DNA of 64,000 nt from a virus. The stretch covers positions 32,001 to 96,000 of the IMG/VR virus record IMGVR_UViG_3300045988_149468; one strand, given 5' to 3'. Under the pieces are notes generated by a model. It was given only the letters and a program-made list of their open reading frames with translations, searched no databases and was not told the DNA's origin. Shown one piece after another: positions 3,121 to 63,300 of this stretch (the first letter of the stretch is position 1; every line of letters starts with the position of its first letter). The position numbers and the translations under genes were made by a program.

Positions 3121-4365
3121 TTGAAAGAAAGAGTACAAGGTAAAATTGTATCTTTTGATTTGGAAAATAACAACAGTAGATTCGTTAGATGTAAGTTAAA
3201 ATTAATGCATGATGGCGAATCAAAAAATAGAACACAATTTACCAAAGAGGTTATGATGAATTGTGTAGAAAAAACTGTTAGAAATACACCGATATTATGT
3301 CATGTTTATAAAGATGTTGATGGCAATTATAAAATAGGAAATCACGATATGGATTTTGATTTAGAAAAAAATAAAGATGGTGATTTTGAATTTACTACAA
3401 CACATTTAGAAAAACCTGTTGGGTTTATACCAGAATCAACTGAAATATTTACTGAAGAAGAAGATGGAAGAACTTATGTTTATGCTATTGGATTATTATG
3501 GAAGCATTATATGGATAAATTAGAAGATTTATTATTAGATAAAGACTGTGTGTCTAATATATCTACTGAATTACTTTGTAATGATGCTGAAATGAATGAT
3601 GACAATATATTAGATATAAGGGAATTTGAACTTATGGGAACAACAATTATAAGTGCTGAAACAGGTATGCATAATACTGTTGGTGAATTTTATTTTTCAA
3701 ATGAAGATACAATGACTGTAGAAGATATGCAATTAGCATATAGTGAAGAATTGAGAGGAGGTGAAAAGGAAAACATGGATGAAAATGTAAAAGATCAAGT
3801 AGTTGAAAATGCTATCGAAGAACAAGAACCTCAAGTTGATGATTCGTTAGAAGAAACTGTTGTTGAAAATGCCGATAAAAAAGATAAAAAAGATAAAAAA
3901 GATGAACCTGAAAAGGATGAAGAAAAAACTGAAGAAGACGACAAGAAAAAGAAAAACGAATTAGAAGAAAAATATGAAGAGTTACAAGCTCAATTTGAAA
4001 GTTTAAAACAAGAAAACATAGCACTTAATGAAAAATTAGAATCAATGAAAGATTATGATGAATTAAAAGAATTTAAATTACAATCAGATAGAGCTAAGTT
4101 TGAACAAGAAGTTGAAGAAGTTACTGCTAAATTCGGATTAGCTGAAGAAGAAATATCTGAATTAAAAGGCAAAGTTTTAAACTATGAATTAGAATTAAAA
4201 GCTTATGAAAAAGAATTAGGTTATATGTATGCTATGAAAAAATTAGCTGAAACAAAAGTTGAAAAATTTAGCAAAGAAGAAATAAAAGAAGAAATGCCAC
4301 AAATAGATAATGGTGATTCTGAAGATGAACCTTATGGTGGATTATTTAGTATATTAGATAAATAG
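3121..4365 (+). CDS. scaffolding protein (globular N-terminal domain plus acidic coiled-coil C-terminal half)
   Basis: In-frame TTG 3121 lies 9 nt after AAGGAGG; ATG 3013 and 3100 lack an SD. The C-terminal half is D/E/K-rich and heptad-like (DKKDKKDKKDEPEKDEEKTEEDDKKKK, ELEEKYEELQAQFESLKQENIALNEKLE). It sits between the portal and capsid genes. The N-terminal part (NTPILCHVY region) might be prohead-protease-like; this is unverified. Confidence 0.6.
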   Translation: MKERVQGKIVSFDLENNNSRFVRCKLKLMHDGESKNRTQFTKEVMMNCVEKTVRNTPILCHVYKDVDGNYKIGNHDMDFDLEKNKDGDFEFTTTHLEKPVGFIPESTEIFTEEEDGRTYVYAIGLLWKHYMDKLEDLLLDKDCVSNISTELLCNDAEMNDDNILDIREFELMGTTIISAETGMHNTVGEFYFSNEDTMTVEDMQLAYSEELRGGEKENMDENVKDQVVENAIEEQEPQVDDSLEETVVENADKKDKKDKKDEPEKDEEKTEEDDKKKKNELEEKYEELQAQFESLKQENIALNEKLESMKDYDELKEFKLQSDRAKFEQEVEEVTAKFGLAEEEISELKGKVLNYELELKAYEKELGYMYAMKKLAETKVEKFSKEEIKEEMPQIDNGDSEDEPYGGLFSILDK

Positions 4366-11778: not shown

Positions 11779-13672
11779 ATGGCAGATCATCAATTTAATA
11801 TTAAATTAGGTATTAAAGTTGAAAAAGGTGATTCTGAAAAACAGTTAGAGAATCTCAAAAAATCATTAGAAGAGAAGAAAATTACTTTAAAATTAGATGT
11901 AACTAAGCTTAATGAACAATTAAAAACATTTAAAGATTCGTTAAGTGATGTTAATAAAAAATTAAATGATGCTTTTAAGTTAAATAATGGTGCATTAGAT
12001 AATTTAAAGAATTTAAAAACCGTATTAGAGGAAATCAACAAATTAAGTGGTAAAACTAAAATACAAATTAATAATAGTAAAGACGTAAACACAATTACTA
12101 AAAATTTAGAAACACAGAAACAAAAGTATGCTGAATTAATAAGGTTGAAACAAAGCCTTGAAAAACAAAGAGCTAAAACAACTAATGCTGAATCGTATAA
12201 TGCATTAACAAGAGAAATTGATTTAGTTTCACAAAAAGCAGAAGAATGTAAAACTAAACTTAGTGAACTAACTAAGATTAAGTTAAATGCCGACATGACT
12301 AAAAGTATGGCATCGCAATTTCAAACAATTCAAAAAGAAGCTCAATCCTTAAAAACTTCATTAGAAAATACTTTAAAAAATTCTAATTTAACAATGACTC
12401 AGCAACATGATTTAGAAAATCTCTTAAAAACTATCGAAAAAATCAAAGGTAAAAAAGTAGATTTAAAAACTGATGGAGCAAAAACTAAATTACAAGATAT
12501 AAAAACCAATTTAGAAAGTATTAAAGAAAAATATTCATCAATTAAAATAGATATAAAAACTAACGACAATATTAGAAGTGCGATAAAAACAACTAATGAT
12601 TTTATTAACAAAATTAATTCTGCTCAAAAATCTAAAACTGGTGTAAATTCATTTATTGATGAAGGAAAATTAAATAATTTAAAAACTAAAGTTAAAGATT
12701 TAAGAACTCAATTGTCCGATGTACATTTAAAACCTAATGTTGAATCAGAGATTGAAAACATTATAAAAAAATTAGATAGATGTAAGGTTGAGTTTAAAGA
12801 ATTACAAAATTCAGCTAAATTAAGCATGAAAATAGATGGTGATGTAAATTCACAAACTAAACAGATTGATACTATGTTAAATAAGCTAAAAGAAATGAAA
12901 CAATGGAAAATTGGTTCAAATGCTTATATAGATGAATCTAAAATCAATGAAGCGATATCTAAATTAGAACAGTATAAAAATGAATTGAAAAATTTAGACG
13001 TTAATGATGAAAAAGTTGCATCTGAATTTGAGACTATAAAAAGTAAAATCAATGAAACAACACAAGAAATAAAAGAATTTCAAAATCAAGCTAAGCAAGG
13101 TATGAAAATTGATAGCAATAATGCTAGTATAGATTCATTAAAAAACAAAATCACTCAGTTAAAAAATGAAGAAAAATTAACTGCTGAACAAGCTGAACAA
13201 CTTAAACAAAAATTAAATCAAATATCACAAATGGATGTTGGAAAACAAGCTAATGCTATAAAACATTTTAGAAACGAATTAAAACAAGCTACAGATGAAA
13301 CTTCCAGATTGCAAACTGGTGTTAAAAGAACAAGCACATTCTTTAGTAATCTATATTCAACAATGTCTACATTCTCTCTAGGTAATATTATAAGTATGCA
13401 AATAACCAAAGCTATTTATGGTATAAGTGATACTATTAGAGAATTAGATAAAGCATTTGTTGGGTTAACTAAAGTTGCACCAGATTCATTTCATGGTACT
13501 GCTGAAGAATTAGAAAATGTAAGACAAAAAGCAGTAGAGGTTGGACAAGATGTTGCTCGTAGTGCTACGGATATAATTAATTCAACTGCATCAGCTTTAC
13601 AGTTAGGCGTAAGTAATATTGATAGAGCTATGGAATATGCTAAAAATGTCAATTTATACGCAAATGTCGCAG
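11779..13672 (+). CDS. tail tape measure protein, exon 1
   Basis: Strong SD; about 500 aa of coiled-coil followed by the conserved TMP core (...VGQDVARSATDIINSTASALQLGVSNIDRAMEYAKNVNLYANVA). The uninterrupted frame would stop at 13698, inside intron sequence. Confidence 0.75.
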
Positions 13673-14043
13673 AAACAACATTCTGCCTATGTTTATAAAG
13701 AGCATAGCAAACTCATTGAATTGCTGGAAAGCCCTAAAGCTCAAATGCCACAACATAATTGGAAACGATAAGTGTGATGGAACGAAAGTAGAAAAAAGTT
13801 TTGAGATAGTATAAGGTTAAACCCTAAGTACTAAAATAATGGGTAATCAGCCTCCAAGTCTCTATAAAGTGAGAAAGGATAAACGACTATTCCGTGACGG
13901 GAAGTACACATATAAGCTATTGATATGTGGAAGTGGTGAGGTTCTTTTTATTGAAAAAGAATGTGATATAGTCTACTCTTATATGAAAGTATAAGAAGTT
14001 CATAAGAGAACTGTCTAGCGTAGCGAGCTAGATGAATACAAGG
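13673..14043 (+). ncRNA. group I intron TMP-I1 (ORF-less, 371 nt; boundaries inferred)
   Basis: Core elements occur in order: P GAATTGCTGGAAA 13718-30, Q AATCAGCC 13845-52, R AAACGACTATTCC 13881-93, S GATATAGTCT 13965-74. The 3' tail is GTTCATAAGAGAAC 13998-14011 plus hairpin TCTAGC/GCTAGA. It is richer in G+C than the flanks. Confidence 0.75.
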
Positions 14044-14190
14044 ATATTTCAGAAGAGGATTCAGATAAATATTTAAAATCAATAATGTCAGCGTATGGTG
14101 GCGTTGATGAATCATTGGATGCTATGAGTACCAAAGTTAAAGGTGCTGGTGATAATTACAGTAGATTAACTGATTATATGGATCAGGCAG
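14044..14190 (+). CDS. tail tape measure protein, exon 2
   Basis: Open stretch reading (D)ISEEDSDKYLKSIMSAYGGVDESLDAMSTKVKGAGDNYSRLTDYMDQA; no start codon or SD of its own. Confidence 0.6.
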
Positions 14191-14563
14191 ATGTTTGCCT
14201 AGTTGTATAGTAATATGCAACCGAAAACAACTCTAATTGCAGGTAATGGGTAAAGCCTTACACTACAATATGCCAGAAATGAGTATATGATAGTGCGAAA
14301 GCGGAAACAACGTAAGGATTCTCATATGGTTAAATCCTAAGTGGGAAATGATTAAATTCATACAATCCCTGTTCATGCAACCAAGCTCCCCTGTATATAA
14401 CGAGGAGAAGGCTCAACGACTAATTGTACATTACAAGCCAATGGTAATGGAAAAGGGTTGCTCCTATTTATATAGGATGAAGAAATAGTCTAATCTTATG
14501 TGAAAGCATAAGCAGTTTGTAAGAGAACGGCATAAATCTTGCGAATTTATGTGAATATGAAAG
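14191..14563 (+). ncRNA. group I intron TMP-I2 (ORF-less, 373 nt; boundaries inferred)
   Basis: P TAATTGCAGGTAA 14234-46, Q-like GTTCATGCAACC 14371-82, R CTCAACGACTAAT 14412-24, S AAATAGTCT 14483-91, tail GTTTGTAAGAGAAC 14515-28 plus hairpin CATAAAT/ATTTATG. It is closest to I4. Confidence 0.7.
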
Positions 14564-14577
14564 AAACTATGCAGGTG
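14564..14577 (+). CDS. tail tape measure protein, micro-exon 3 (14 nt; alternatively 13 nt, 14564-14576)
   Basis: This is the only segment between I2 and I3 whose length keeps exons 2 and 4 in frame: (E)TMQV in the 14-nt solution, (A)NYAG in the 13-nt solution. Confidence 0.4.
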
Positions 14578-14922
14578 AAAGTTTAATCGCCTAGTAATAC
14601 AAGTGATTGTATTATTTTACTTTTTGAATTGCTGGAAACTCCTTAGAGTCTTAAATACTACAACATAATCTGAAAAGATAAGTGTGAAAGTTTAAAAAAT
14701 TTAAGAATTGGAAAATCAGCAGGTAAGATTCTAAGTTGATTATAAAATCAATATGAATAAACTTCAACGACTATTCCTGGCAAGGAAGTACATTCAAGCG
14801 AATGGAAGTGGAAAGCTCTTATAATAATTATAAGATAAAGATATAGTCTAGTATCCTATTGAAAAATAGGGAAGTTCATAAGAGAACTGATTAGGAAGTA
14901 GCGAACCTAATTGAATATAACG
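14578..14922 (+). ncRNA. group I intron TMP-I3 (ORF-less, 345 nt; boundaries inferred)
   Basis: P GAATTGCTGGAAA 14626-38, Q AATCAGCAGG 14714-23, R TTCAACGACTATTCC 14763-77, S GATATAGTCT 14840-49, tail GTTCATAAGAGAAC 14874-87 plus hairpin ATTAGG/CCTAAT. It is closest to I1. Confidence 0.7.
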
Positions 14923-15411
14923 AATAATTTTGCTGTTACATCAGCCGACATAGGTGAAGCATTAATGAGAAGTGCTTCAGCTTTTAAATCTAATGGTATG
15001 GATATAAATGAAGGTATAGGATTAATTGTAGGTGCTCAAGAAACGGTTCAAAATGCGGGTAAAGTAGGAAATAGTTTTAAAACAATGATAAATCGTCTTA
15101 ATGGGGTTACTTACTCTATGAAAGAAGGAGATGTTATTGCTAACAAAACTGCACAAGCATTTGAAAAATTAGCAGGTATCAAAATAGTAGATTGGGATAC
15201 TAACAAAGTAAAAGATGCTTATACTATCTTTAGTCAATTAGCAGATAAATGGGATGATATGAACGATGTTCAAAAAAATGGTATAGCAGACGCATTAGGT
15301 GGTGCTCACCATTTGAACACATTACAAGCTTTAATGAACAACTGGGACACTGTCGTACAATATCAACAAGAATATAACGATGGATTCATGGTTGGATCAG
15401 CTGAAAAAGAG
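14923..15411 (+). CDS. tail tape measure protein, exon 4
   Basis: NNFAVTSADIGEALMRSASAFKSNGMDINEGIGLIVGAQETVQNAGKVGNSFKTMINRL... is the typical TMP core. The track ORF 14911-15447 extends into intron sequence on both sides. Confidence 0.65.
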
Positions 15412-15647
15412 AAACAACATTCTCCGTATGTACAGAAATGTGCATAGGACACAACTTGAATTGCAGGTACAACCTAAGAGCCTTACACCACAATATTGGA
15501 GAAATCACAATATGAAGGTACGAAAGTAGAAACAACGTAAGGATAGATATAAGGTTAAATCCTAAGTATCTAAATGTAATTAAAGTAATTATTACATTAC
15601 AATGGTAGTTCATGCAGAGAAATTCCTAAATTTAATTTATAAAATCA

Positions 15648-15676
15648 TTGACAATATTTACCATTGGTGTTATTAT
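15648..15676 (+). promoter_or_regulatory. sigma-70-type promoter inside intron I4
   Basis: TTGACA (15648-53), 17 bp, TATTAT (15671-76), 11 bp, AATTAATAAGGAGG (15688-), then ATG 15710. Confidence 0.5.
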
Positions 15677-15709
15677 TTAAATATAATAATTAATAAGGAG
15701 GTGATTATT

Positions 15710-16861
15710 ATGGCAAAAAAATATAATGAAAAAGATATTATTGAAATTTTAGAAAAAAATAATGTGATATTATTATCAAATTATAAAAATAGCACAACAG
15801 AATTAAAAATGATTTGTAGCTGTGGAAAGCATTTTAGTAAATCGTTTAAAATAATGAAACGAAGTGGAAATTTTAAATGTAATGATTGTATAAAAAAAGA
15901 ACAAGTAAAAAAACAAACTATGCCTTATGAAATTGCAAAACAGAGAGTTGAAAACTTAGGATATAAATTGTTAACAACCAAAGAAGAATATATTAAAGCT
16001 AGTGAAAAAAACAAATTACAATGTCCAAATGGGCATATATATGAACAAATATTATTAGATTTATTTAAAGGACACAGATGTAAAAAATGTGCATCTAAAA
16101 TAAACGGAGATAAATCTAAATTTAAATACGAAGATGTTAAAAAGGTTATAACTGATTTAGGATTTGAATTATTATCAGCAGAATATGTAAATAATGATAC
16201 TCCTTTAAAAGTTAAATGTAAAAAATGTAATCATATATTTTCCCCAACTTTACATAATTTAAAAAACGGAACTGGCTGTCCAAATTGTTATTCAAAAATT
16301 AGGGGTAAATCTACAATCATACCATACGAGGATAGAGTAAATTATGTTGAAAATTTTAATTATAAAATCTTAACACCAAAAGAAGAATATATTAATGGTG
16401 AAAATAAGGTGAAATTAAAATGTTCAAAAGGACATATTTATGAAGCTAGATTGCATGATTTTTACATTGGAAATAGATGTCCGCATTGTAAGGAATCTAA
16501 AGGTGAAAGAAAAATTGAAAGATTTTTAAAAGAAAATGACATTAGATTTGAAAAACAATACATTATAAAAAGATGTAAATTTAAAAGATATTTACCTTTT
16601 GATTTTTATTTACCTGATTATAACCTTCTTATAGAATATGATGGGAAGCAACATTTTGAAATAAGTGATTATTTTGGGGGTTATGAAAGTTTCATAGATA
16701 CCAAGATAAGAGATACAATTAAAAACATTTATTGTCAAAATAATAACATAGATTTATTGAGAATCTCTTATTGGGATTATAAAAATATTGAGAATATATT
16801 GGCTGATAAATTAAAATTAAACAAGGAAAACTTTCAACGACTAGAGTTGAGATACTCGTAG
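15710..16861 (+). CDS. intron-encoded homing endonuclease: tandem zinc-ribbon modules plus C-terminal Vsr/PD-(D/E)XK-like nuclease domain
   Basis: ATG 15710 follows AAGGAGG. There are four repeats of CxxGH...GxxCPxC-type ribbons (CSCGKH..CNDC, CPNGH..CKKC, CKKCNH..CPNC, CSKGH..CPHC). The C-terminus FDFYLPDYNLLIEYDGKQHFE...RD matches Vsr/DUF559-like and EDxHD-type nucleases. The last codons overlap intron element R. Confidence 0.75.
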   Translation: MAKKYNEKDIIEILEKNNVILLSNYKNSTTELKMICSCGKHFSKSFKIMKRSGNFKCNDCIKKEQVKKQTMPYEIAKQRVENLGYKLLTTKEEYIKASEKNKLQCPNGHIYEQILLDLFKGHRCKKCASKINGDKSKFKYEDVKKVITDLGFELLSAEYVNNDTPLKVKCKKCNHIFSPTLHNLKNGTGCPNCYSKIRGKSTIIPYEDRVNYVENFNYKILTPKEEYINGENKVKLKCSKGHIYEARLHDFYIGNRCPHCKESKGERKIERFLKENDIRFEKQYIIKRCKFKRYLPFDFYLPDYNLLIEYDGKQHFEISDYFGGYESFIDTKIRDTIKNIYCQNNNIDLLRISYWDYKNIENILADKLKLNKENFQRLELRYS

Positions 16862-17000
16862 GATATAAGCGATTGATATCCGAAGTGGGTTGCCCCTAAC
16901 GTAAAGACGAGGGTGAAGAAATAGTCTGCTCATCTATAGAAATATAGAGAAGTTCATAAGAGAACTGCATAGGTATAGCGAATCTATGTGAACAAAAAGG

Positions 17001-20000
17001 AATGCTAGATTTATAGATAGCATAGAAGGTAAAATAACAAAATTAAAAGAACAATTTAATAGTTTGGTTACAACTACAATAAGTACGGATAGTGTTAAAA
17101 CATTTTTAGATGTATTAACAAGTGTATTAGAAACAGTTAATGGTATAGTAAAAGCATTTGATAATATAGGTATGTCTGCTCCTTTGATGATTGGTGTTTT
17201 TGCTAGTTTAGGTAAAACTATAAAAGCTTTAGGTACAGGTTCAGCATTAACTGTGACTGGGGGAAGTATATTTTCAAATTTATTAGGTAGAGCTGGTGTT
17301 CAAATACCACAAACTCTACAACAAAGTACTACTGCAACTGAAGGATTTAGAGTAGCTTTAACTAATGTAAGTGGAGCATCTATGTTAGCTTCAGCAAAAA
17401 CTGCTGTTTTAACTGCGGGTGTAACATTATTAAATACAGTTATGACAGGATTAGCTATTGGTGCTATTGCTTTAGTTTGTAAAGCTTTATATGATTATGT
17501 CAATGCTAATCAAATTGCACATGATAGAATAGAAGATAATATTGATACTACTAAAAGTAATATTAATAGTTATACCAAACAAAAGAATAGCTTAAAAGGT
17601 ATTGCAGAAGAATATGATAATTTAGCGGACAAAACTAATAAAAGTACAAAAGAATCTGAAAGATATCATGAATTACAACAACAAATAGCTGATACTGCAC
17701 CAGATTTAGTTTTAGGACAAGATTCTAATGGAAATCCAATTTTAGCTTTAAATGGATCATTAGAAGATTATATAGATAATTTAGATAGTGCAATAAAAAG
17801 AGAACAAGAGTTTTTAAAAATTCAACAAAATGCATTAGCAAATACTTCAATAGGGAATTTAGTTAAATATACTAAAGATAGAAGTATAGTTGAGTCATCT
17901 CTTGGGAATATGACAAACTTTTCAGATGCATGGGACGATAGTGGTTCATGGTGGAATAAAAAAGGATTAAAAAATGCTAAAGATGGCGCTGATGCCTATG
18001 TTCGTATAGTGCAAGAAAGAAATGATAAAGTAAATAAACTTAATAAAACTTTAACAGAACATTTTACTGAAGTTTCTCAAATAGAAGCAGAACAACAACA
18101 AAAAGTATTTAATGAATTAGGAGATGAATATCTTTATAAAAATTATAATAAGTTATCTAAAGACGGAATTAAGAATACTAAAAATATTATGGATACACTT
18201 ATTGGTAATTTTAACTGGGGTAGTGAAGTCGTAGATACAGTAGCGAAACAAAAGGATTTCATAGAAAGTTTTGATGAAATAGCTTCTAAAGTTGGTAAAA
18301 GCAAAGAAGAAATGCAAGAATGGAATAAAACTTTAAGTGAAGCTAATTATGCTTTCCAAGAAACAGGTGATTATGAACAATTCCAAAAAGACATAAGTGG
18401 TATAACTGAAGAATTAGAAAAAATGACTGGAATTGACGCTGAAAAATGGGCAATTGGATTTACACCAGCTTTACAAGGTTCATTAGATGCTGATTCTATA
18501 GCATTGAGTAAATTTTTAAAGAATTATAATAAAACACTTACAGAACTTAAATCTGGTGATAAAGTAGCAATAAGAATACAAGCCGAATATGAAGATACCA
18601 ATGATTTCATACAAAAGATAACTAATATGGAAGATAGACAGCAACAGATTGATTATATGGTTAAAATTAATACTGGTGAAGTTGAATATGGCAATCTTCC
18701 TTACCAAATTCAAGAAATGATTAAAGGTACTCTTGATGGTGGTAAAACAATGCAAGATTGGGAATCTGATGTTGTTATGAGAATTGCTACTGAAATTCAA
18801 TCTAATGGTGAATTAGATGATAAAACATTTGATTTAATTGCTAGAATGTTAAATGGTGAATTAACCGATACGGAAATTAAAGCAGGGATAACATTACCTA
18901 GTGGTGATGTATTAAATGCACAACTTGTTGGTGAAATAAATGAGGTTAATAAAAATAAAGATAAAAACATTAAAGTAGGAATTGAAGCTGATTCAGAGAA
19001 ATTAGATGAAGATTTATCTACCATTTTAGGTGATAAAGAAGAAGCTAAACAGTTAAAAGTTGATTTAGTTACTAATTTTAATGAAGATAAATTTGAAACA
19101 TTCAATGAATTAATTAAAGATATGGATTCTGATAAACAAATTCAAATAGCTACTGCTTTTGTTAATAATGGTGATGCAGATCCAGATGAAATAGAACAAT
19201 TTATATCATCTTTACCTGATGAAATCCAAAAGATAGTTAGAATTAAGTATGAAGAAAGTGGCAAAAATGATGTTGAAAATAGTGTGTTTAATGAATCTAA
19301 AGTACAGACAATTATACTTGATGCTGATGATGAAAAGGCACAAGCTAAGATTAAGAAATTAGGTAAAACGCTAGATGATATGGACGGTGTTGATAGAAAT
19401 ATTAAAGTTGGTATTATTGAAAATGCTGGTACAGGTAATGTAAAAGATATGATGAAAGCATTAGATTTAGTAAAAGATTTACCAGAAGAAAAAAGATTGG
19501 ATGTTATAAGTAATTTACAAGATATAATGGTAAACTTTTCTGAAGCTGACAAAAAACAACTTAAACCTAAAATAATGGAAATACTTGGTGATAATTCTGA
19601 TGCTAATTCTAAAATAGATAACACAAACGCAAAAGATACCCCAGACAAGAATTTGGATATTAATGCTAACGATAACGCTAGTAATAAAATTCATAAGGTA
19701 CAACAAGAAAGTATAGCCGACAAATTCTTCAACATAGTTGTTGGCGTAAAAGAAACCGTTGCAGGTGCATGGAAAGCTCTAACTAGTGGTGTAGGTGGAT
19801 TATATTCTAAAGGTGATAATAGTACTATAAAACACAAGTCAATTAGTGAATTTTCTAATATAGGAGATAACCCAATAGATGTTGATAGTGCTACACCAAC
19901 AGCTCAAAGTATGGATTTTAACTCTATGTCGGATAGTCCTTCAGTAGTAGATTCTGATTCAACAATAGATAATACAAGCTCAGCTATTAGTAAAGTAAAA

Positions 20001-21935
20001 GCATTTACTACTCAAGCATTAAGAGGATTTACAGATATAGGTAAAACAACTACAATAGGTACAAAAATAGACATAAAGAAAAACACATTAGATTCTATAG
20101 AGTATGCTGTAAACTTAATGCAAGAATTAGAATATCGTATTGATAATGTCAATGATAAATTATCTTTATTGGATGTTAAAATGGAAAATGCAGTAGGTAC
20201 TAAGAAAATTGAATACTTACAAAAACAAAATGCGTTATATGAAGAACAAGCTAAATTACAAAAAGAACTTTATGATAATTTAACTCAAGAAAAGCAAATA
20301 GTTAAAGATAAATTAAGAACATATGGTTTTACAATAGATGCACAAGGGAATCTTAGAAATTATGAAGAAACACTTCTTAAAATGGAAAAAAGAGCTAAAG
20401 AGCTAGAAGACCAAGCCGAAAAAACTAGTAAAAAAGCATCAGATTATGATACTAAAAGTAATAGTAAGTCTAGTAAGAAAACTAAAAAGTCATTACAAAA
20501 GAAAGCCGATAGTTCTAAAGACGCTTCAGATAAATATAAAGAAAAACTTGAAAAGGTAAAAGATTTAACGGAACAATATCTAAAAATGCAAAGAGATGAA
20601 ATTCCAGATGCAGAAAAAGAATGGTTAGAAATGCAAAATGCTATTAAAAAAAATAATGATGAAATAGAAAAGTTAGAATTAGAAGATAAATTATATAAAT
20701 TCAAAAATAGTGTTACTGGATTGACTAATCAATATGACATATGGGGAGATAAAATTGACTTAATAGATACTAAGCTAAACAATTCATTACAAACAGATAA
20801 GGTTTCTTTATATCAACAAAAATTATCAGCTTTAAATAAACAACTTGAAATACAAGAAAAAACATTAGAATCTTTAAAAAATCAATTACCAGTTTATCAA
20901 GAAGCATTATCGAAATATGGTGTTCAGTTTGGAGAAAATGGTAATATCATCAATATGTCTAATGTATTAAATGAATATCAAAATAGTGAAGATTTAGAAA
21001 AGATTAATGATTTAATGAAAGAATATAATGACTTAATCAGAGATACAATTCCAAATGCACAACAAGAATATGAAGATTTGAATAATGCAATTCAAGATGT
21101 TTATAATAGTCAATTAGATGTTGTAAAAGATATTGAAGATAAGATTACTGATGTTATTAAGGATCAAATTGATAAACGTAAAGATTTAATTCAAAAACAA
21201 TATGATAAAGAAATTGAATTACTTAATAAACGAAAAGATGAATATAATAACAATAAAAATACAAATGATTATTATAAAAACTTAGAAGAAGCACAATCTG
21301 AAATTGATAAAATACAAGCTAAAATTAATAGACTAAGTTTTGACAATTCATTATCTAGTAAAAGTAAGATAAGCGATTTAATGGATGATTTAAAAGATGC
21401 ACAAGATAAATATAATGATTTAGTTAACGATAGACAAGACGATTTAATTAATAATATGTATGACGATGAAATTGATAAACTTCAAAAAGAACAAGAAGAT
21501 AAAATACAAGAGCTTGAAGATAAATGGTCAGATAGTAAAATAGCTGAATTAGTTGCTAATGCGTTAGGTACACAACAATTTATAGATATTGACGGAAATG
21601 TTCATAATTTACAAGATACACTGCTTAGTTTTGCTGAAGAAAGTGGAGATGCATTAGGAATATTAGGTGATAAGATTAAAAGTGAATTAGTATTAAATCT
21701 TCAAGATGCTTTAGAATATGCTAAAGATTATAGTAATATATTTGACAACTTAGGATTAAAACATCTAGGTAATGTAAACTATAGTGATAAACTTAATAAC
21801 AAAACATTACGAGTTGATGATATAAGTATTAATGTATATGGTACTGACAACATGGATGAACAAAAAATAGCTAAAGAAGTAGCTAAACAACTTGATGGTA
21901 AATTTAGTGAAATAACAAATGGAGGACTTTTATAG
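17001..21935 (+). CDS. tail tape measure protein, exon 5
   Basis: NARFIDSIEGKITKLKEQFNSLVTT..., then a hydrophobic segment and a long coiled-coil. No SD or ATG; the track assigns TTG 17064. The frame is open from 16992. Confidence 0.75.
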   Translation, partial: NARFIDSIEGKITKLKEQFNSLVTTTISTDSVKTFLDVLTSVLETVNGIVKAFDNIGMSAPLMIGVFASLGKTIKALGTGSALTVTGGSIFSNLLGRAGVQIPQTLQQSTTATEGFRVALTNVSGASMLASAKTAVLTAGVTLLNTVMTGLAIGAIALVCKALYDYVNANQIAHDRIEDNIDTTKSNINSYTKQKNSLKGIAEEYDNLADKTNKSTKESERYHELQQQIADTAPDLVLGQDSNGNPILALNGSLEDYIDNLDSAIKREQEFLKIQQNALANTSIGNLVKYTKDRSIVESSLGNMTNFSDAWDDSGSWWNKKGLKNAKDGADAYVRIVQERNDKVNKLNKTLTEHFTEVSQIEAEQQQKVFNELGDEYLYKNYNKLSKDGIKNTKNIMDTLIGNFNWGSEVVDTVAKQKDFIESFDEIASKVGKSKEEMQEWNKTLSEANYAFQETGDYEQFQKDISGITEELEKMTGIDAEKWAIGFTPALQGSLDADSIALSKFLKNYNKTLTELKSGDKVAIRIQAEYEDTNDFIQKITNMEDRQQQIDYMVKINTGEVEYGNLPYQIQEMIKGTLDGGKTMQDWESDVVMRIATEIQSNGELDDKTFDLIARMLNGELTDTEIKAGITLPSGDVLNAQLVGEINEVNKNKDKNIKVGIEADSEKLDEDLSTILGDKEEAKQLKVDLVTNFNEDKFETFNELIKDMDSDKQIQIATAFVNNGDADPDEIEQFISSLPDEIQKIVRIKYEESGKNDVENSVFNESKVQTIILDADDEKAQAKIKKLGKTLDDMDGVDRNIKVGIIENAGTGNVKDMMKALDLVKDLPEEKRLDVISNLQDIMVNFSEADKKQLKPKIMEILGDNSDANSKIDNTNAKDTPDKNLDINANDNASNKIHKVQQESIADKFFNIVVGVKETVAGAWKALTSGVGGLYSKGDNSTIKHKSISEFSNIGDNPIDVDSATPTAQSMDFNSMSDSPSVVDSDSTIDNTSSAISKVKAFTTQALRGFTDIGKTTTIGTKIDIKKNTLDSIEYAVNLMQELEYRIDNVNDKLSLLDVKMENAVGTKKIEYLQKQNALYEEQAKLQKELYDNLTQEKQIVKDKLRTYGFTIDAQGNLRNYEETLLKMEKRAKELEDQAEKTSKKASDYDTKSNSKSSKKTKKSLQKKADSSKDASDKYKEKLEKVKDLTEQYLKMQRDEIPDAEKEWLEMQNAIKKNNDEIEKLELEDKLYKFKNSVTGLTNQYDIWGDKIDLIDTKLNNSLQTDKVSLYQQKLSALNKQLEIQEKTLESLKNQLPVYQEALSKYGVQFGENGNIINMSNVLNEYQNSEDLEKINDLMKEYNDLIRDTIPNAQQEYEDLNNAIQDVYNSQLDVVKDIEDKITDVIKDQIDKRKDLIQKQYDKEIELLNKRKDEYNNNKNTNDYYKNLEEAQSEIDKIQAKINRLSFDNSLSSKSKISDLMDDLKDAQDKYNDLVNDRQDDLINNMYDDEIDKLQKEQEDKIQELEDKWSDSKIAELVANALGTQQFIDIDGNVHNLQDTLLSFAEESGDALGILGDKIKSELVLNLQDALEYAKDYSNIFDNLGLKHLGNVNYSDKLNNKTLRVDDISINVYGTDNMDEQKIAKEVAKQLDGKFSEITNGGLL

Positions 21936-31580: not shown

Positions 31581-32972
31581 ATGTATGGTAAATTTATAAA
31601 TGACGAATTAATTGAAGCACCAAATACATATAAAACGCCAATGGGTGAATTAATAACTAATTTCACTAATTCTGTTGAATTAATGAAAGCTTATGGATTT
31701 AAAGAAATCACAGGAAATCAACCGAATTATGATCCTAACTATGAAGTATTAATAATTACATCTCATATAGAGCATGAAGACACAATAGAATGTGTTTATG
31801 AAAAAGTTTCAATGGCATCGTTACTTAAAACTAATATATCACATGATAAAAAAATAGATTATACTAGAGGTGAAATATTAGAAGCTAGAAAAAGTACTAA
31901 ATTAGTAAATGGTGAAACCACAACTAAAGAGTATTCTTCTTTAAAAGAAAGATTAGATAATATGGAAACTTTTGTTTATGAAAGAGTAGATATATCTAAT
32001 ACTACCCCAAATATAAATATAGAAAATAAAAAAATGTATATTTGCAATGAAAGTATAACCAATATATCGTTGATAACACCTGCTAATGTTGATGTCAACT
32101 TTTCATCTAAATTGTATTTTTCTTCAGATTCGGATTTAACATTGGATAATGTATTATTTATGGGTGACCATTGTGAAAATGGAAAATTAAATATTAAAGA
32201 AAATAACGAATATATTGTTGATTTTGTATATGCTACAAGATTCATAGGATTAGTTTCATCTTCAAATGTAATTGATGGTGATCCACCACAACCAAGCGAC
32301 CCTGGTGAAGATGTTGAAAATAAATTGCACTCATTTAGTGGTGGTGCTGAATTGGTTAGAATAGCTAAAACATATTGGGAAAATAGAGCAAATTATATGA
32401 CTTATGGTATGCAAAACATTTTAACTGATGGTGCTACATTAGGCTGGACAAAAGTTACAACTAAGGGTGCTGATAGCCCAGATGGTAGATATAGAAAATT
32501 AGACTGCTCTGCTTTTGTTGGTTTGGCAATGAGAGGAATAGAATTTAGAGATGTATTTAAAGATAGTAATACATTTGCTAAGAAAGATTTATCTCCTCGA
32601 AATTCTAAATATCCATGGGCAACTCAATTAAGCAGAACATCAGCTAATATGTGCAAGGATTGTGAAAACTTAGGTTGGGCAGTTCCACCAGATAATTGGC
32701 ATACTGATTCAGCTAAAACTAATTGGTTGGGATTAGAGGTTGGAGATTTAATATTCCTTAAAGGTGATTCTGATAATGGCAGATACAAAGCTGTAAATCA
32801 TGTATGCATTTATTATGGGGATAATAGTAAAGGAGAAAAATGTATAATTGAGTTTACAGGTGGTGCAACAGTTAAAAAACATTCCGATGGTAAAAATTAT
32901 GGATGTCAAATAATACCATTAGCAAGAAAAAATAGAGCAAACATAGTAACTGTTGCTAGATGTCAAAAATAG
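31581..32972 (+). CDS. structural protein with C-terminal NlpC/P60-like (C40) peptidase domain
   Basis: RKLDCSAFVGLAMRG (Cys) and VNHVCIYYGDN (His); SD AAAGGAGGG. Confidence 0.6.
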   Translation: MYGKFINDELIEAPNTYKTPMGELITNFTNSVELMKAYGFKEITGNQPNYDPNYEVLIITSHIEHEDTIECVYEKVSMASLLKTNISHDKKIDYTRGEILEARKSTKLVNGETTTKEYSSLKERLDNMETFVYERVDISNTTPNINIENKKMYICNESITNISLITPANVDVNFSSKLYFSSDSDLTLDNVLFMGDHCENGKLNIKENNEYIVDFVYATRFIGLVSSSNVIDGDPPQPSDPGEDVENKLHSFSGGAELVRIAKTYWENRANYMTYGMQNILTDGATLGWTKVTTKGADSPDGRYRKLDCSAFVGLAMRGIEFRDVFKDSNTFAKKDLSPRNSKYPWATQLSRTSANMCKDCENLGWAVPPDNWHTDSAKTNWLGLEVGDLIFLKGDSDNGRYKAVNHVCIYYGDNSKGEKCIIEFTGGATVKKHSDGKNYGCQIIPLARKNRANIVTVARCQK

Positions 32973-48132: not shown

Positions 48133-48182
48133 TTGAAAATAATAACTAATTATGTTATAATTCAATTATAATAATTAATAAG
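48133..48182 (+). promoter_or_regulatory. promoter plus conserved leader
   Basis: TTGAAA (48133-38), 17 bp, TATAAT (48156-61), 11 bp, AATTAATAAG (48173-82), then AGGAGAG and ATG 48199. Confidence 0.55.
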
Positions 48183-58212: not shown

Positions 58213-58422
58213 TTATAATCTTTCTAATATGAATAAACTTTTATTGTCAAATATACCATATAGATTATCTTTTATATTGATTAACTTATTTGTTTTTAAT
58301 TTAATGTGTTTACCTGATGATGTAGTTAAATATGTCTCTTTATCTTGTGTTAATTCACAAGTATCATTGATTATTCCATATAGATTTTTATAATCACTCT
58401 TTAAAAATAATATTTTATACAT
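58213..58422 (-). CDS. hypothetical protein
   Basis: SD AAGGAGC with the leader motif. Confidence 0.45.
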   Translation of the reverse strand: MYKILFLKSDYKNLYGIINDTCELTQDKETYLTTSSGKHIKLKTNKLINIKDNLYGIFDNKSLFILERL

Positions 58423-58454: not shown

Positions 58455-58483
58455 ATAATAACATAAATGGTATTTATTGTCAA
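58455..58483 (-). promoter_or_regulatory. sigma-70-type promoter plus conserved leader
   Basis: On the minus strand: TTGACA (58483-78), 17 bp, TATTAT (58460-55), 11 bp, AATTAATAAGGAG (58443-). Confidence 0.5.
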
Positions 58484-63271: not shown

Positions 63272-63300
63272 ATATTACCATATTTAACATTTATTGTCAA
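63272..63300 (-). promoter_or_regulatory. sigma-70-type promoter plus conserved leader
   Basis: On the minus strand: TTGACA (63300-295), 17 bp, TAATAT (63277-72), 11 bp, AATTAATAAG (63260-51). Confidence 0.5.

Follow-up and report, generated by a model that had tools for sequence, protein, structure and literature searches.

The sequence considered here is a stretch of 64,000 nucleotides (nt) from a virus (IMG/VR record IMGVR_UViG_3300045988_149468, positions 32,001 to 96,000), hereafter called the window, in whose numbering all positions are given. It is an AT-rich phage genome whose tape-measure gene extends from 11779 to 21935 on the plus strand, where all features lie unless stated otherwise, and is broken by four interruptions, I1 to I4. 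The last of them, I4 (15412-17000, 1589 nt), contains an open reading frame (ORF) for a predicted homing endonuclease of 383 amino acids (aa) and is the subject of this work. Taken together, the evidence makes it very likely that a phiCD211-like Clostridia phage carries I4 in its tape-measure gene as a mobile group I intron equipped with a homing endonuclease cassette. A megablast search of the 13-18 kb region against the phage collection returned no closely related genome at the DNA level. By tblastn, the tape-measure protein is 45-52% identical to its counterparts in phiCD211, phiCDIF1296T, AR1086-1 and ES-S-0173-01, which are large siphophages of Clostridioides difficile.

Rfam recognizes three of the four interruptions as group I introns, at 13683-13995 (43.8 bits), 14174-14512 (50.5 bits) and 14567-14871 (73.4 bits); the fourth, I4, went undetected when searched whole because of its 1.2-kb insert. 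For the boundary calls, exon translations were aligned with those of the relatives, among which phiCD211, AR1086-1 and ES-S-0173-01 are intron-less at the I4 site. Exon 4 (14923-15411), placed by tblastn to phiCD211-like tape-measure genes and by a match of its ORF to PF10145 (PhageMin_Tail), ends in ...GSAEKE with GAG as its last codon, and exon 5 (17001-21935), placed by the ORF list and the alignment of the relatives, begins NARFIDSIEGK. Across the site the protein reads GSAEKE-NERFINS in phiCD211, GSASKE-NERFINS in AR1086-1, GSSDKE-NKRFVDS in ES-S-0173-01 and GSAEKE/NARFIDS in the window (the slash marks a splice site). At the DNA level, phiCD211 has GCTGAAAAAGAG-AATGAGAGATTC, and the flanks in the window are GCTGAAAAAGAG/AATGCTAGATTT; the intron-less allele of phiCD211 is thereby GCTGAAAAAGAG/AATG at the insertion site, within ..GCTGAAAAAGAGAATGAGAGATTC... 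Joining the exons across I4 keeps the frame, and the resulting GAG/AAT junction is the same, nucleotide for nucleotide, as in the phiCD211 allele without an intron. An ambiguity of one nucleotide in the register (G/A...G/G A) is resolved because the orthologous introns in two metagenomic relatives (L007 and L011) end in ...AACG/AAT, which places I4 at 15412-17000 with G17000 as its last nucleotide. The limits and the junction given in a preliminary description, made from the sequence of the window, thus agree with the intron-less relatives.

The RNA of I4 carries the helices of a group I ribozyme. When its 3' part (16818-16949) was searched alone, it matched positions 123-253 of Rfam family RF00028 (38.7 bits, E 7e-9; the hit is truncated at its 5' end). 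The 5' part shares 74% identity with I1 (164 nt aligned) and 76% with I2 (140 nt aligned), both of which Rfam detects whole, and it aligns with I1-I3 through P3, J3/4, P4, P5 and P4'. RNAalifold, given the 3' halves of I1-I4 and two orthologues, recovered P7, P7.1, P8, P9, P9.1 and P9.2 in 29 pairs, and double compensatory changes occur at 14 of these; P7 (GACUA with UAGUC) is invariant, and the compensatory pairs fall in P7.1, P8, P9 and P9.2. The presence of P7.1 and P7.2 places the intron in an IA-like subgroup, with P9.1 and P9.2 as further elements. These results, together with the in-frame restoration of the exons, bear out the earlier call of a group I intron, and I4 is predicted to be self-splicing.

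From 5' to 3', the structure begins with the P1 hairpin (GAG/AA-ACAACA-UUCUC, 15409-15424), seen in the sequence and conserved in five orthologues, and with P2 (15424-15448), which contains the in-frame stop of the exon 4 frame (TAG, 15445-47). Alignment with I1-I3 as annotated by Rfam gives the P3 5' strand, J3/4 (AAU) and P4 5' strand (UGCAGG) at 15452-15467, and the P4 3' strand (the 'Q' element, UUCAUGCA) with the P6 5' strand (GAGAAAUUCC, 15617-26) at 15609-15626. Beyond the P6 loop follow the P6' 3' strand (GGAAAACU, 16825-32), the R/P7 5' strand including J6/7 (TTCAACGACTA, 16833-43) and P7.1 (16844-57), all three read from the sequence. Single-sequence folds and RNAalifold place P7.2 (16861-81), the P3 3' strand (16882-92) and P8 (16893-913), together 16861-16913. 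J8/7 and the P7 3' strand (the 'S' element, GAAGAAAUAGUCU) with P9 occupy 16915-16949 (Rfam match of the 3' half, RNAalifold), and P9.1, P9.2 and the 3' tail with the terminal G occupy 16951-17000 (folds, RNAalifold).

The guide of I4 is CAUUCUC (15418-24), in which CAUU, just 5' of the exon-binding part, could pair with AAUG of the 3' exon to form P10. In I1 the same P1 loop is flanked by GCAG/AA...UUCUGC, and because the I1 guide matches the different exon of I1, the guide of I4 co-varies with its exon. Over their first 164 nt, I1 (13673-13836) and I4 (15412-15575) are 74% identical and have the same P1 loop (ACAACA), with CUGC and CUC, respectively, in the guides. This likeness fits an intron that has spread from one site of the gene to another, with its guide re-tuned. 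Other 5' splice sites for I4, after U15420/15421 or after the U.G pair of P2, were rejected: they would insert 3-7 residues absent in all relatives, and AAACAACAUU also begins I1, in another exon context.

The ORF in I4 runs from ATG 15710 to TAG 16859-61 (15710-16861), as supported by the ORF list, Pfam, PHROG and homologues. Its ATG lies 8 nt 3' of GGAGG, and an identical 383-aa protein is already present in public assemblies (P0001). A longer ORF from ATG 15602 (419 aa) was set aside, as it has no ribosome-binding site and both the homologues and the public gene call begin at MAKKY. The N-terminal part (15710-16495) consists of four tandem modules of ~65 aa, each a helix plus a zinc ribbon of the treble-clef type (residues 1-66, 67-133, 134-199 and 200-262), as seen by internal alignment, Pfam and an AlphaFold (AF2) model with a predicted local distance difference test score (pLDDT) of 90 for the whole protein. 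Their repeat pattern, YE.V...IE..GY.LL...EY....K..C..GH....L.....G..C..C, supplies a C-x3/4-H...C-x2-C metal site in all four modules. In Pfam, they match DUF4379 'treble clef zinc finger' with 49.8 bits (cut-off 24.5) and CapR with 25.5 bits (cut-off 24.2). The ORF and the four modules are therefore as the preliminary description had them, and the same is true of the FDFYLP, IEYDGKQH and RD motifs in the C-terminal domain.

This domain (residues 263-372, 16496-16825) is a Vsr-like nuclease domain of the EDxHD type with residues E266, D298, E309, D311, H315, D335 and K338, as judged by conservation, the model, Foldseek and hhalign. Among 58 homologues, D298, E309, Q314, H315, D335 and K338 are invariant and D311 is conserved in at least 90%, while E266 occurs in most of them, not all. 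The AF2 model of the domain alone reaches a pLDDT of 91 and a predicted TM-score (pTM) of 0.81, and it was used for Foldseek in place of the whole four-domain model, which gave diluted scores. Lack of any nuclease-fold match for the domain would, as the preliminary description had set out, have spoken against an endonuclease; this did not occur, and the search returned only Vsr-type structures at the top, led by 1cw0_A, a DNA-bound E. coli Vsr (prob 1.00, TMq 0.64, rmsd 3.7), together with AbaSI and PvuRts1I (prob 0.94-0.97) and the DUF559 protein 3hrl (TMt 0.67). Across Vsr, AbaSI, PvuRts1I and DUF559 the match probabilities are 0.92-1.00; RAP-domain mitoribosomal proteins were also returned. 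Structural matches in BFVD come from phages and giant viruses, and some of them are labelled 'Homing endonuclease' or 'Group I intron protein'. We confidently assign the C-terminal domain to the Vsr-type nuclease fold, and cleavage activity is predicted from it.

The PHROG database leads to another assignment. Its family phrog_559 matches residues 3-371 at E 1.2e-81 and bears the name 'HNH endonuclease', and several phage records in GenBank also label homologues HNH; further PHROGs over the C-terminal domain are named 'homing endonuclease' and 'intron encoded nuclease'. That the protein is an HNH endonuclease is nonetheless extremely improbable, since no LAGLIDADG, GIY-YIG or HNH family of Pfam was found at E<=1 in the 383-aa protein, just as the preliminary description had expected, the top of the fold search holds Vsr-type nucleases only, and a VSR signature has been noted for phrog_559 in intron-encoded proteins of Bacillus phages (PMC11878797). 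The PHROG name 'HNH endonuclease' for phrog_559 is a mislabel.

A kinship to the Vsr/DUF559 family and to the EDxHD family of I-Bth0305I had also been proposed. EDxHD was defined by the catalytic residues of I-Bth0305I, namely E170, D196, the position of N208, H213 and D222 (PMC3239194). We took the I-Bth0305I sequence from the record of phage 0305phi8-36 and compared it with the domain profile by hhalign, which aligned KGE-R...FDFYLP...IEYDG with TPE-R...VDFYLG...IEVNG and thereby E266 with E170, D298 with D196 and D311 with N208 (E 7e-4, but a probability of only 26% over 43 columns). H315 and D335 lie outside the aligned columns and would correspond to H213 and D222 by motif order and spacing. 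Like the I4 protein, I-Bth0305I (PDB 3R3P, recA intron of Bacillus phage 0305phi8-36) is encoded by a group I intron and has a C-terminal Vsr-like domain, and the spacing from D to H is 17 residues in both. By contrast, its N-terminal DNA-binding region consists of NUMOD2/HTH instead of four zinc ribbons, it passes the Pfam cut-off for DUF559 (29.7 bits) whereas the I4 protein does not (14.3), and its ORF is located in P5 rather than P6 of the intron.

A closer counterpart is a group of endonucleases with CapR/DUF4379/DUF723 repeats and a Vsr-like domain, described as an 'outgroup' of the EDxHD/Vsr enzymes in group I and II introns of phages (PMC12350094). Its members have three to five modules of ~60 aa and, C-terminal to them, a Vsr-like domain of ~100 aa, the same layout as in the I4 protein with its four modules. 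DUF723 is recorded for close homologues of the I4 protein, and homologues carry the same three Pfam labels (DUF4379, CapR and DUF723). The host genes differ, being the virion RNA polymerase or terminase gene for that group and the tape-measure gene for I4; the clade of I4 is specific for one tape-measure site, and I4 has its own promoter cassette. The I4 protein belongs to this CapR/DUF4379-repeat outgroup, whose published description it matches fully, and not to the I-Bth0305I clade proper. The proposed kinship thus stands for the fold and the motif positions, while the N-terminal part differs and the clade is another one. This architecture is one that two papers of 2025 have already described in phage introns, and the class was first defined computationally in that year.

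Promoter, leader and ORF all lie in the P6 loop, between GAGAAAUUCC and GGAAAACU. By consensus scoring, a predicted sigma-70-type promoter, TTGACA (15648-53)-17-(TG)TATTAT (15671-76), occupies 15648-15676; with 11 of 12 matches it has the top score in the 13-18 kb region, and only 10 sites as strong occur in the 64-kb window. It is followed by the leader AATTAATAAGGAGG (15688-15701), which includes the Shine-Dalgarno sequence and occurs nine times in the window with <=2 mismatches (1.9 expected; none of 100 shuffles reached nine). The promoter and leader noted in the preliminary description are hence present, and the cassette is repeated: the block at 15641-15712 is identical at 57 of 71 positions to a block 5' of the minus-strand gene at 58422 and at 48 of 68 positions to one at the minus-strand gene 63244. 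Copies of the pattern TTGACAATAwwT...TGkTAwTAT with the AATTAATAAGGAG leader lie at 58455-58483 (minus strand), 63272-63300 (minus strand) and also 48133-48161 (plus strand). The repeated block is probably the standard, perhaps early, promoter type of the phage. Since the cassette is shared with other genes, the endonuclease gene uses the phage's own standard expression cassette, which is good, if indirect, evidence for a working promoter in I4.

At its 3' end the ORF enters the ribozyme core. Residues 373-383 and the stop (16825-16861) lie on P6' (16825-32), J6/7 with the P7 5' strand (16833-43) and P7.1 (16844-57). An overlap of the last 10 codons with R/P7 had been reported; the overlap is real, amounts to 12 codons with the stop counted, includes P6' and P7.1 as well, and is not conserved in orthologues. 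Conservation of the domain stops near residue 372; beyond it the tail is unconserved, with a pLDDT below 50. In the orthologue L006 the ORF stops 5 nt ahead of P6', in L007 it passes P7 and P7.1 in another reading frame (...TSTTIPGDVKSHQ), and the homologue P0002 shares the tail NFQRLELKYS. Because the orthologues differ at the core, the overlap is best seen as an ORF that continues into the core up to a chance stop; it is no conserved coding feature and does not look like a designed switch. A conflict between translation and ribozyme folding is reasonable to expect, as a translating ribosome would unwind P6, P7 and P7.1. In phage T4, the ORF of I-TevI extends into the td core and regulated translation is needed for efficient splicing, and T4 introns have independent promoters (PMC2988022); ORFs that overlap intron cores have general precedent (PMC3984707). 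I-TevI is a GIY-YIG enzyme, unlike the I4 protein, and td has a hairpin that sequesters the ribosome-binding site as well as an operator, neither of which was found for I4 in the searches described below.

As to mobility, the closest homologues with enough sequence context (P0004, P0008, P0010, P0013 and P0018; 51-71% aa identity) all reside in tape-measure genes and at the same codon junction, ...(K/R/N/Q)E followed by N.R(Y/F)(I/V)(D/N)S. The orthologous introns of these five metagenomic relatives begin AAAyAAyATTCTCC. In the three cultured relatives, phiCD211, ES-S-0173-01 and AR1086-1, the I4 site is empty and introns occupy two other tape-measure sites. Such variation in occupancy at a single site among relatives, combined with a conserved endonuclease, is a classic signature of homing. 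In L011, a run of N at ~2260-2270 within the orthologous intron makes the P3 region unreadable.

These data also bear on whether the endonuclease gene could be an inactive or decaying passenger, the intron being kept by vertical descent and splicing without present homing. The family is known computationally only, the C-terminal tail is unconserved, and the ORF-less I1-I3 persist in the same gene, all of which would suit a passenger. Compared with 58 homologues, however, the ORF is not shortened, and none of the invariant Cys/His and catalytic residues is lost; the gene has also kept a strong ribosome-binding site and promoter, and the intron is polymorphic in presence at one site among relatives, so that a passenger appears quite improbable.

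Several results weigh against the interpretation of I4 as a mobile, self-splicing intron with an active endonuclease. On the RNA side, the match of the 3' half stays under the RF00028 gathering threshold, being truncated, and an Rfam search with the 5' half alone gave no match. The last exon nucleotide, G15411, pairs with C15422 in P1, where a U.G wobble is nearly universal in group I introns; with a G-C pair at this place, efficient self-splicing is not guaranteed. On the protein side, the Foldseek E-values are modest (2.5e-3 to 0.15) and 3r3p (I-Bth0305I) falls outside the top 50, PDB sequence searches (phmmer; full-length and C-terminal profiles) gave nothing meaningful, and the Pfam matches of the domain are below threshold (DUF559 14.3 bits, cut-off 20.6; PvuRts1I-like_N 21.1, cut-off 27), DUF559 being reached at E<=0.01 in 4 of the 58 homologues. 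As for expression, the orthologue L006 has no recognisable promoter 5' of its endonuclease gene. A search for a T4-like hairpin that would mask the ribosome-binding site was negative, the fold of 15612-15730 being no more stable than those of shuffled sequences (z = +1.09). In the promoter region, no operator-like repeat of the homing site was seen either, the best local alignment being matched by 378 of 500 shuffles; regulation in the style of T4 is therefore not evident. No palindromic symmetry was found at the I4 insertion site.

The G-C pair, and the public annotations of relatives with two 'tape measure' coding sequences (CDSs), could be taken to mean that nothing is spliced here, a free-standing endonuclease gene lying between two separately translated tape-measure fragments and the RNA elements being relics. 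We hold this to be highly improbable. The ribozyme helices are complete and show compensatory changes, the guide co-varies with the exon between I1 and I4, and the junction restores the exact frame and sequence of the intron-less alleles. Moreover, exon 5 lacks both a start codon and a ribosome-binding site at 17001, translation from its first in-frame start (TTG 17064) would lose conserved residues, and a 17-nt micro-exon encoding the conserved NYAG elsewhere in the gene is sensible only with splicing.

The unusual pair is a property of the whole lineage: GAG/AAA stands at the 5' splice site in I4 and in all five orthologues (L006, L007, L009, L011 and L012). At the last exon position, I1 (13669-13686) has G or A and I2 (14181-14204) has C, A or G, depending on the solution, and a canonical U.G is found in I3 (AGGU/GA opposite UCGCCU), in the intron of AR1086-1 (GCGAU/) and in the T4 td intron. 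A literature search for natural non-U 5' splice sites of group I introns yielded no useful papers. As a speculation to which we attach only a small chance, the tape-measure intron lineage may have swapped U.G for a Watson-Crick pair; if splicing is efficient, this would imply altered recognition of the cleavage site or a protein helper, possibly the zinc-ribbon endonuclease as a maturase; independently of this, the array of four zinc-ribbon modules may recognise DNA one module at a time. Orthologues with slightly differing targets would make such module-by-module reading testable.

In the preferred interpretation of I4 as a mobile group I intron, its RNA would fold as an IA-like ribozyme (P1-P9.2), excise itself and rejoin ...GSAEKE to NARFIDS..., giving the full-length tape-measure protein. 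From the cassette in the P6 loop, with a phage promoter of the sigma-70 type and the standard leader and ribosome-binding site, the 383-aa endonuclease would be made. Its four CapR/DUF4379-like zinc-ribbon modules would bind a long DNA target, and the Vsr-like nuclease (E266, D298, H315 and D335, along with E309, D311 and K338) would cleave the tape-measure allele of a co-infecting relative that lacks the intron, near GCTGAAAAAGAG/AATG. Repair of the cut allele by recombination would then bring both intron and gene into it. As no stop of the ORF precedes the ribozyme core, ribosomes translating it would run through P6', P7 and P7.1, and on one RNA molecule endonuclease translation and folding or splicing would be mutually exclusive. 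A separate promoter would allow the endonuclease to come from transcripts that need not splice.

The remaining introns of the gene are ORF-less. I1 (13673-14043) rests on its Rfam match and on the junction ANVA/DISEED deduced from relatives, with a register ambiguous by 1 nt. I2 (14185-14559), supported by Rfam and homologue length, has an uncertain 5' boundary (14185, 14186 or 14188): three in-frame solutions (14184-14188, 14559-14563) give DQERNYAG, DQNYAG or DQRNYAG, and DQRNYAG alone fits the length of the relatives (D-xx-NY.G). Homologue length thus favours C14184 opposite A at the cleavage site, next to an unused U.G pair, and an intron end at G14559. Micro-exon 3 (14560-14576, 17 nt, ..RNYAG) is followed by I3 (14577-14922), the Rfam match with the canonical U.G at the 5' splice site, and NYAG/NNFAV is conserved in all relatives. 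A single tape-measure gene thereby holds four related group I introns, with the 17-nt micro-exon between I2 and I3. The preliminary description had regarded I1-I3 as ORF-less derivatives. They are indeed ORF-less and related to I4, matching it only in its first ~164 nt and last ~90 nt; nothing in I1-I3 matches the I4 ORF region, and no ORF remnant was seen. I1-I3 may have lost the gene, or a once ORF-less I4 may have gained the cassette; a promoter cassette of phage type that travels with the gene is compatible with gain.

In the phiCD211-like phage group the tape-measure gene is an intron hot spot, with introns of relatives at two more sites, after ..VQNA and after ..IAEA. The intron loci in relatives are L001 3646-4247, L002 3874-4168, L003 ~3900-4195 and L006 ~2275-2760, the last at the I3 site. 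In the deposited records NC_029048.2 and OR397124.1 (L001 and L003), the tape measure is annotated as two CDSs flanking the intron, and the spliced protein is unannotated. The contigs L012 and L013 (1-3613) contain three ORFs of the CapR/DUF4379 type within the tape-measure region. An Rfam search of L001-L003, L006 and L007 together (39 kb) gave no match, and the phiCD211 intron scored 41.7 bits (E 4e-9) in a separate search of 900 nt. The joint null result reflects the effect of the speed filter on AT-rich introns, so the whole-window scan may have missed other introns.

Staphylococcus phage Twort is said to carry three group I introns in one gene, orf142, the classic record for a phage gene, after work by Landthaler and Shub from 1999. 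Like orf142, the tape-measure gene is a phage structural or late gene with several related group I introns; it differs in having four of them, a 17-nt micro-exon and an endonuclease gene in one intron only.

For this phage group, the 'HNH endonuclease' labels and the split tape-measure annotations are wrong. The class to which the I4 protein belongs is very large, with at least 1265 homologues at E<=1e-5 and tblastn matches in 711 phage records, and defined computationally; I4 is a complete example of it whose presumed natural target, the intron-less allele, is known from phiCD211. With four introns, a micro-exon and non-canonical splice-site pairs, the tape-measure gene is a good test bed for the spread of group I introns within a gene and for the tolerance of P1. 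The five orthologues at the same site could serve for mapping specificity, which makes this intron a practical start for characterising the class.

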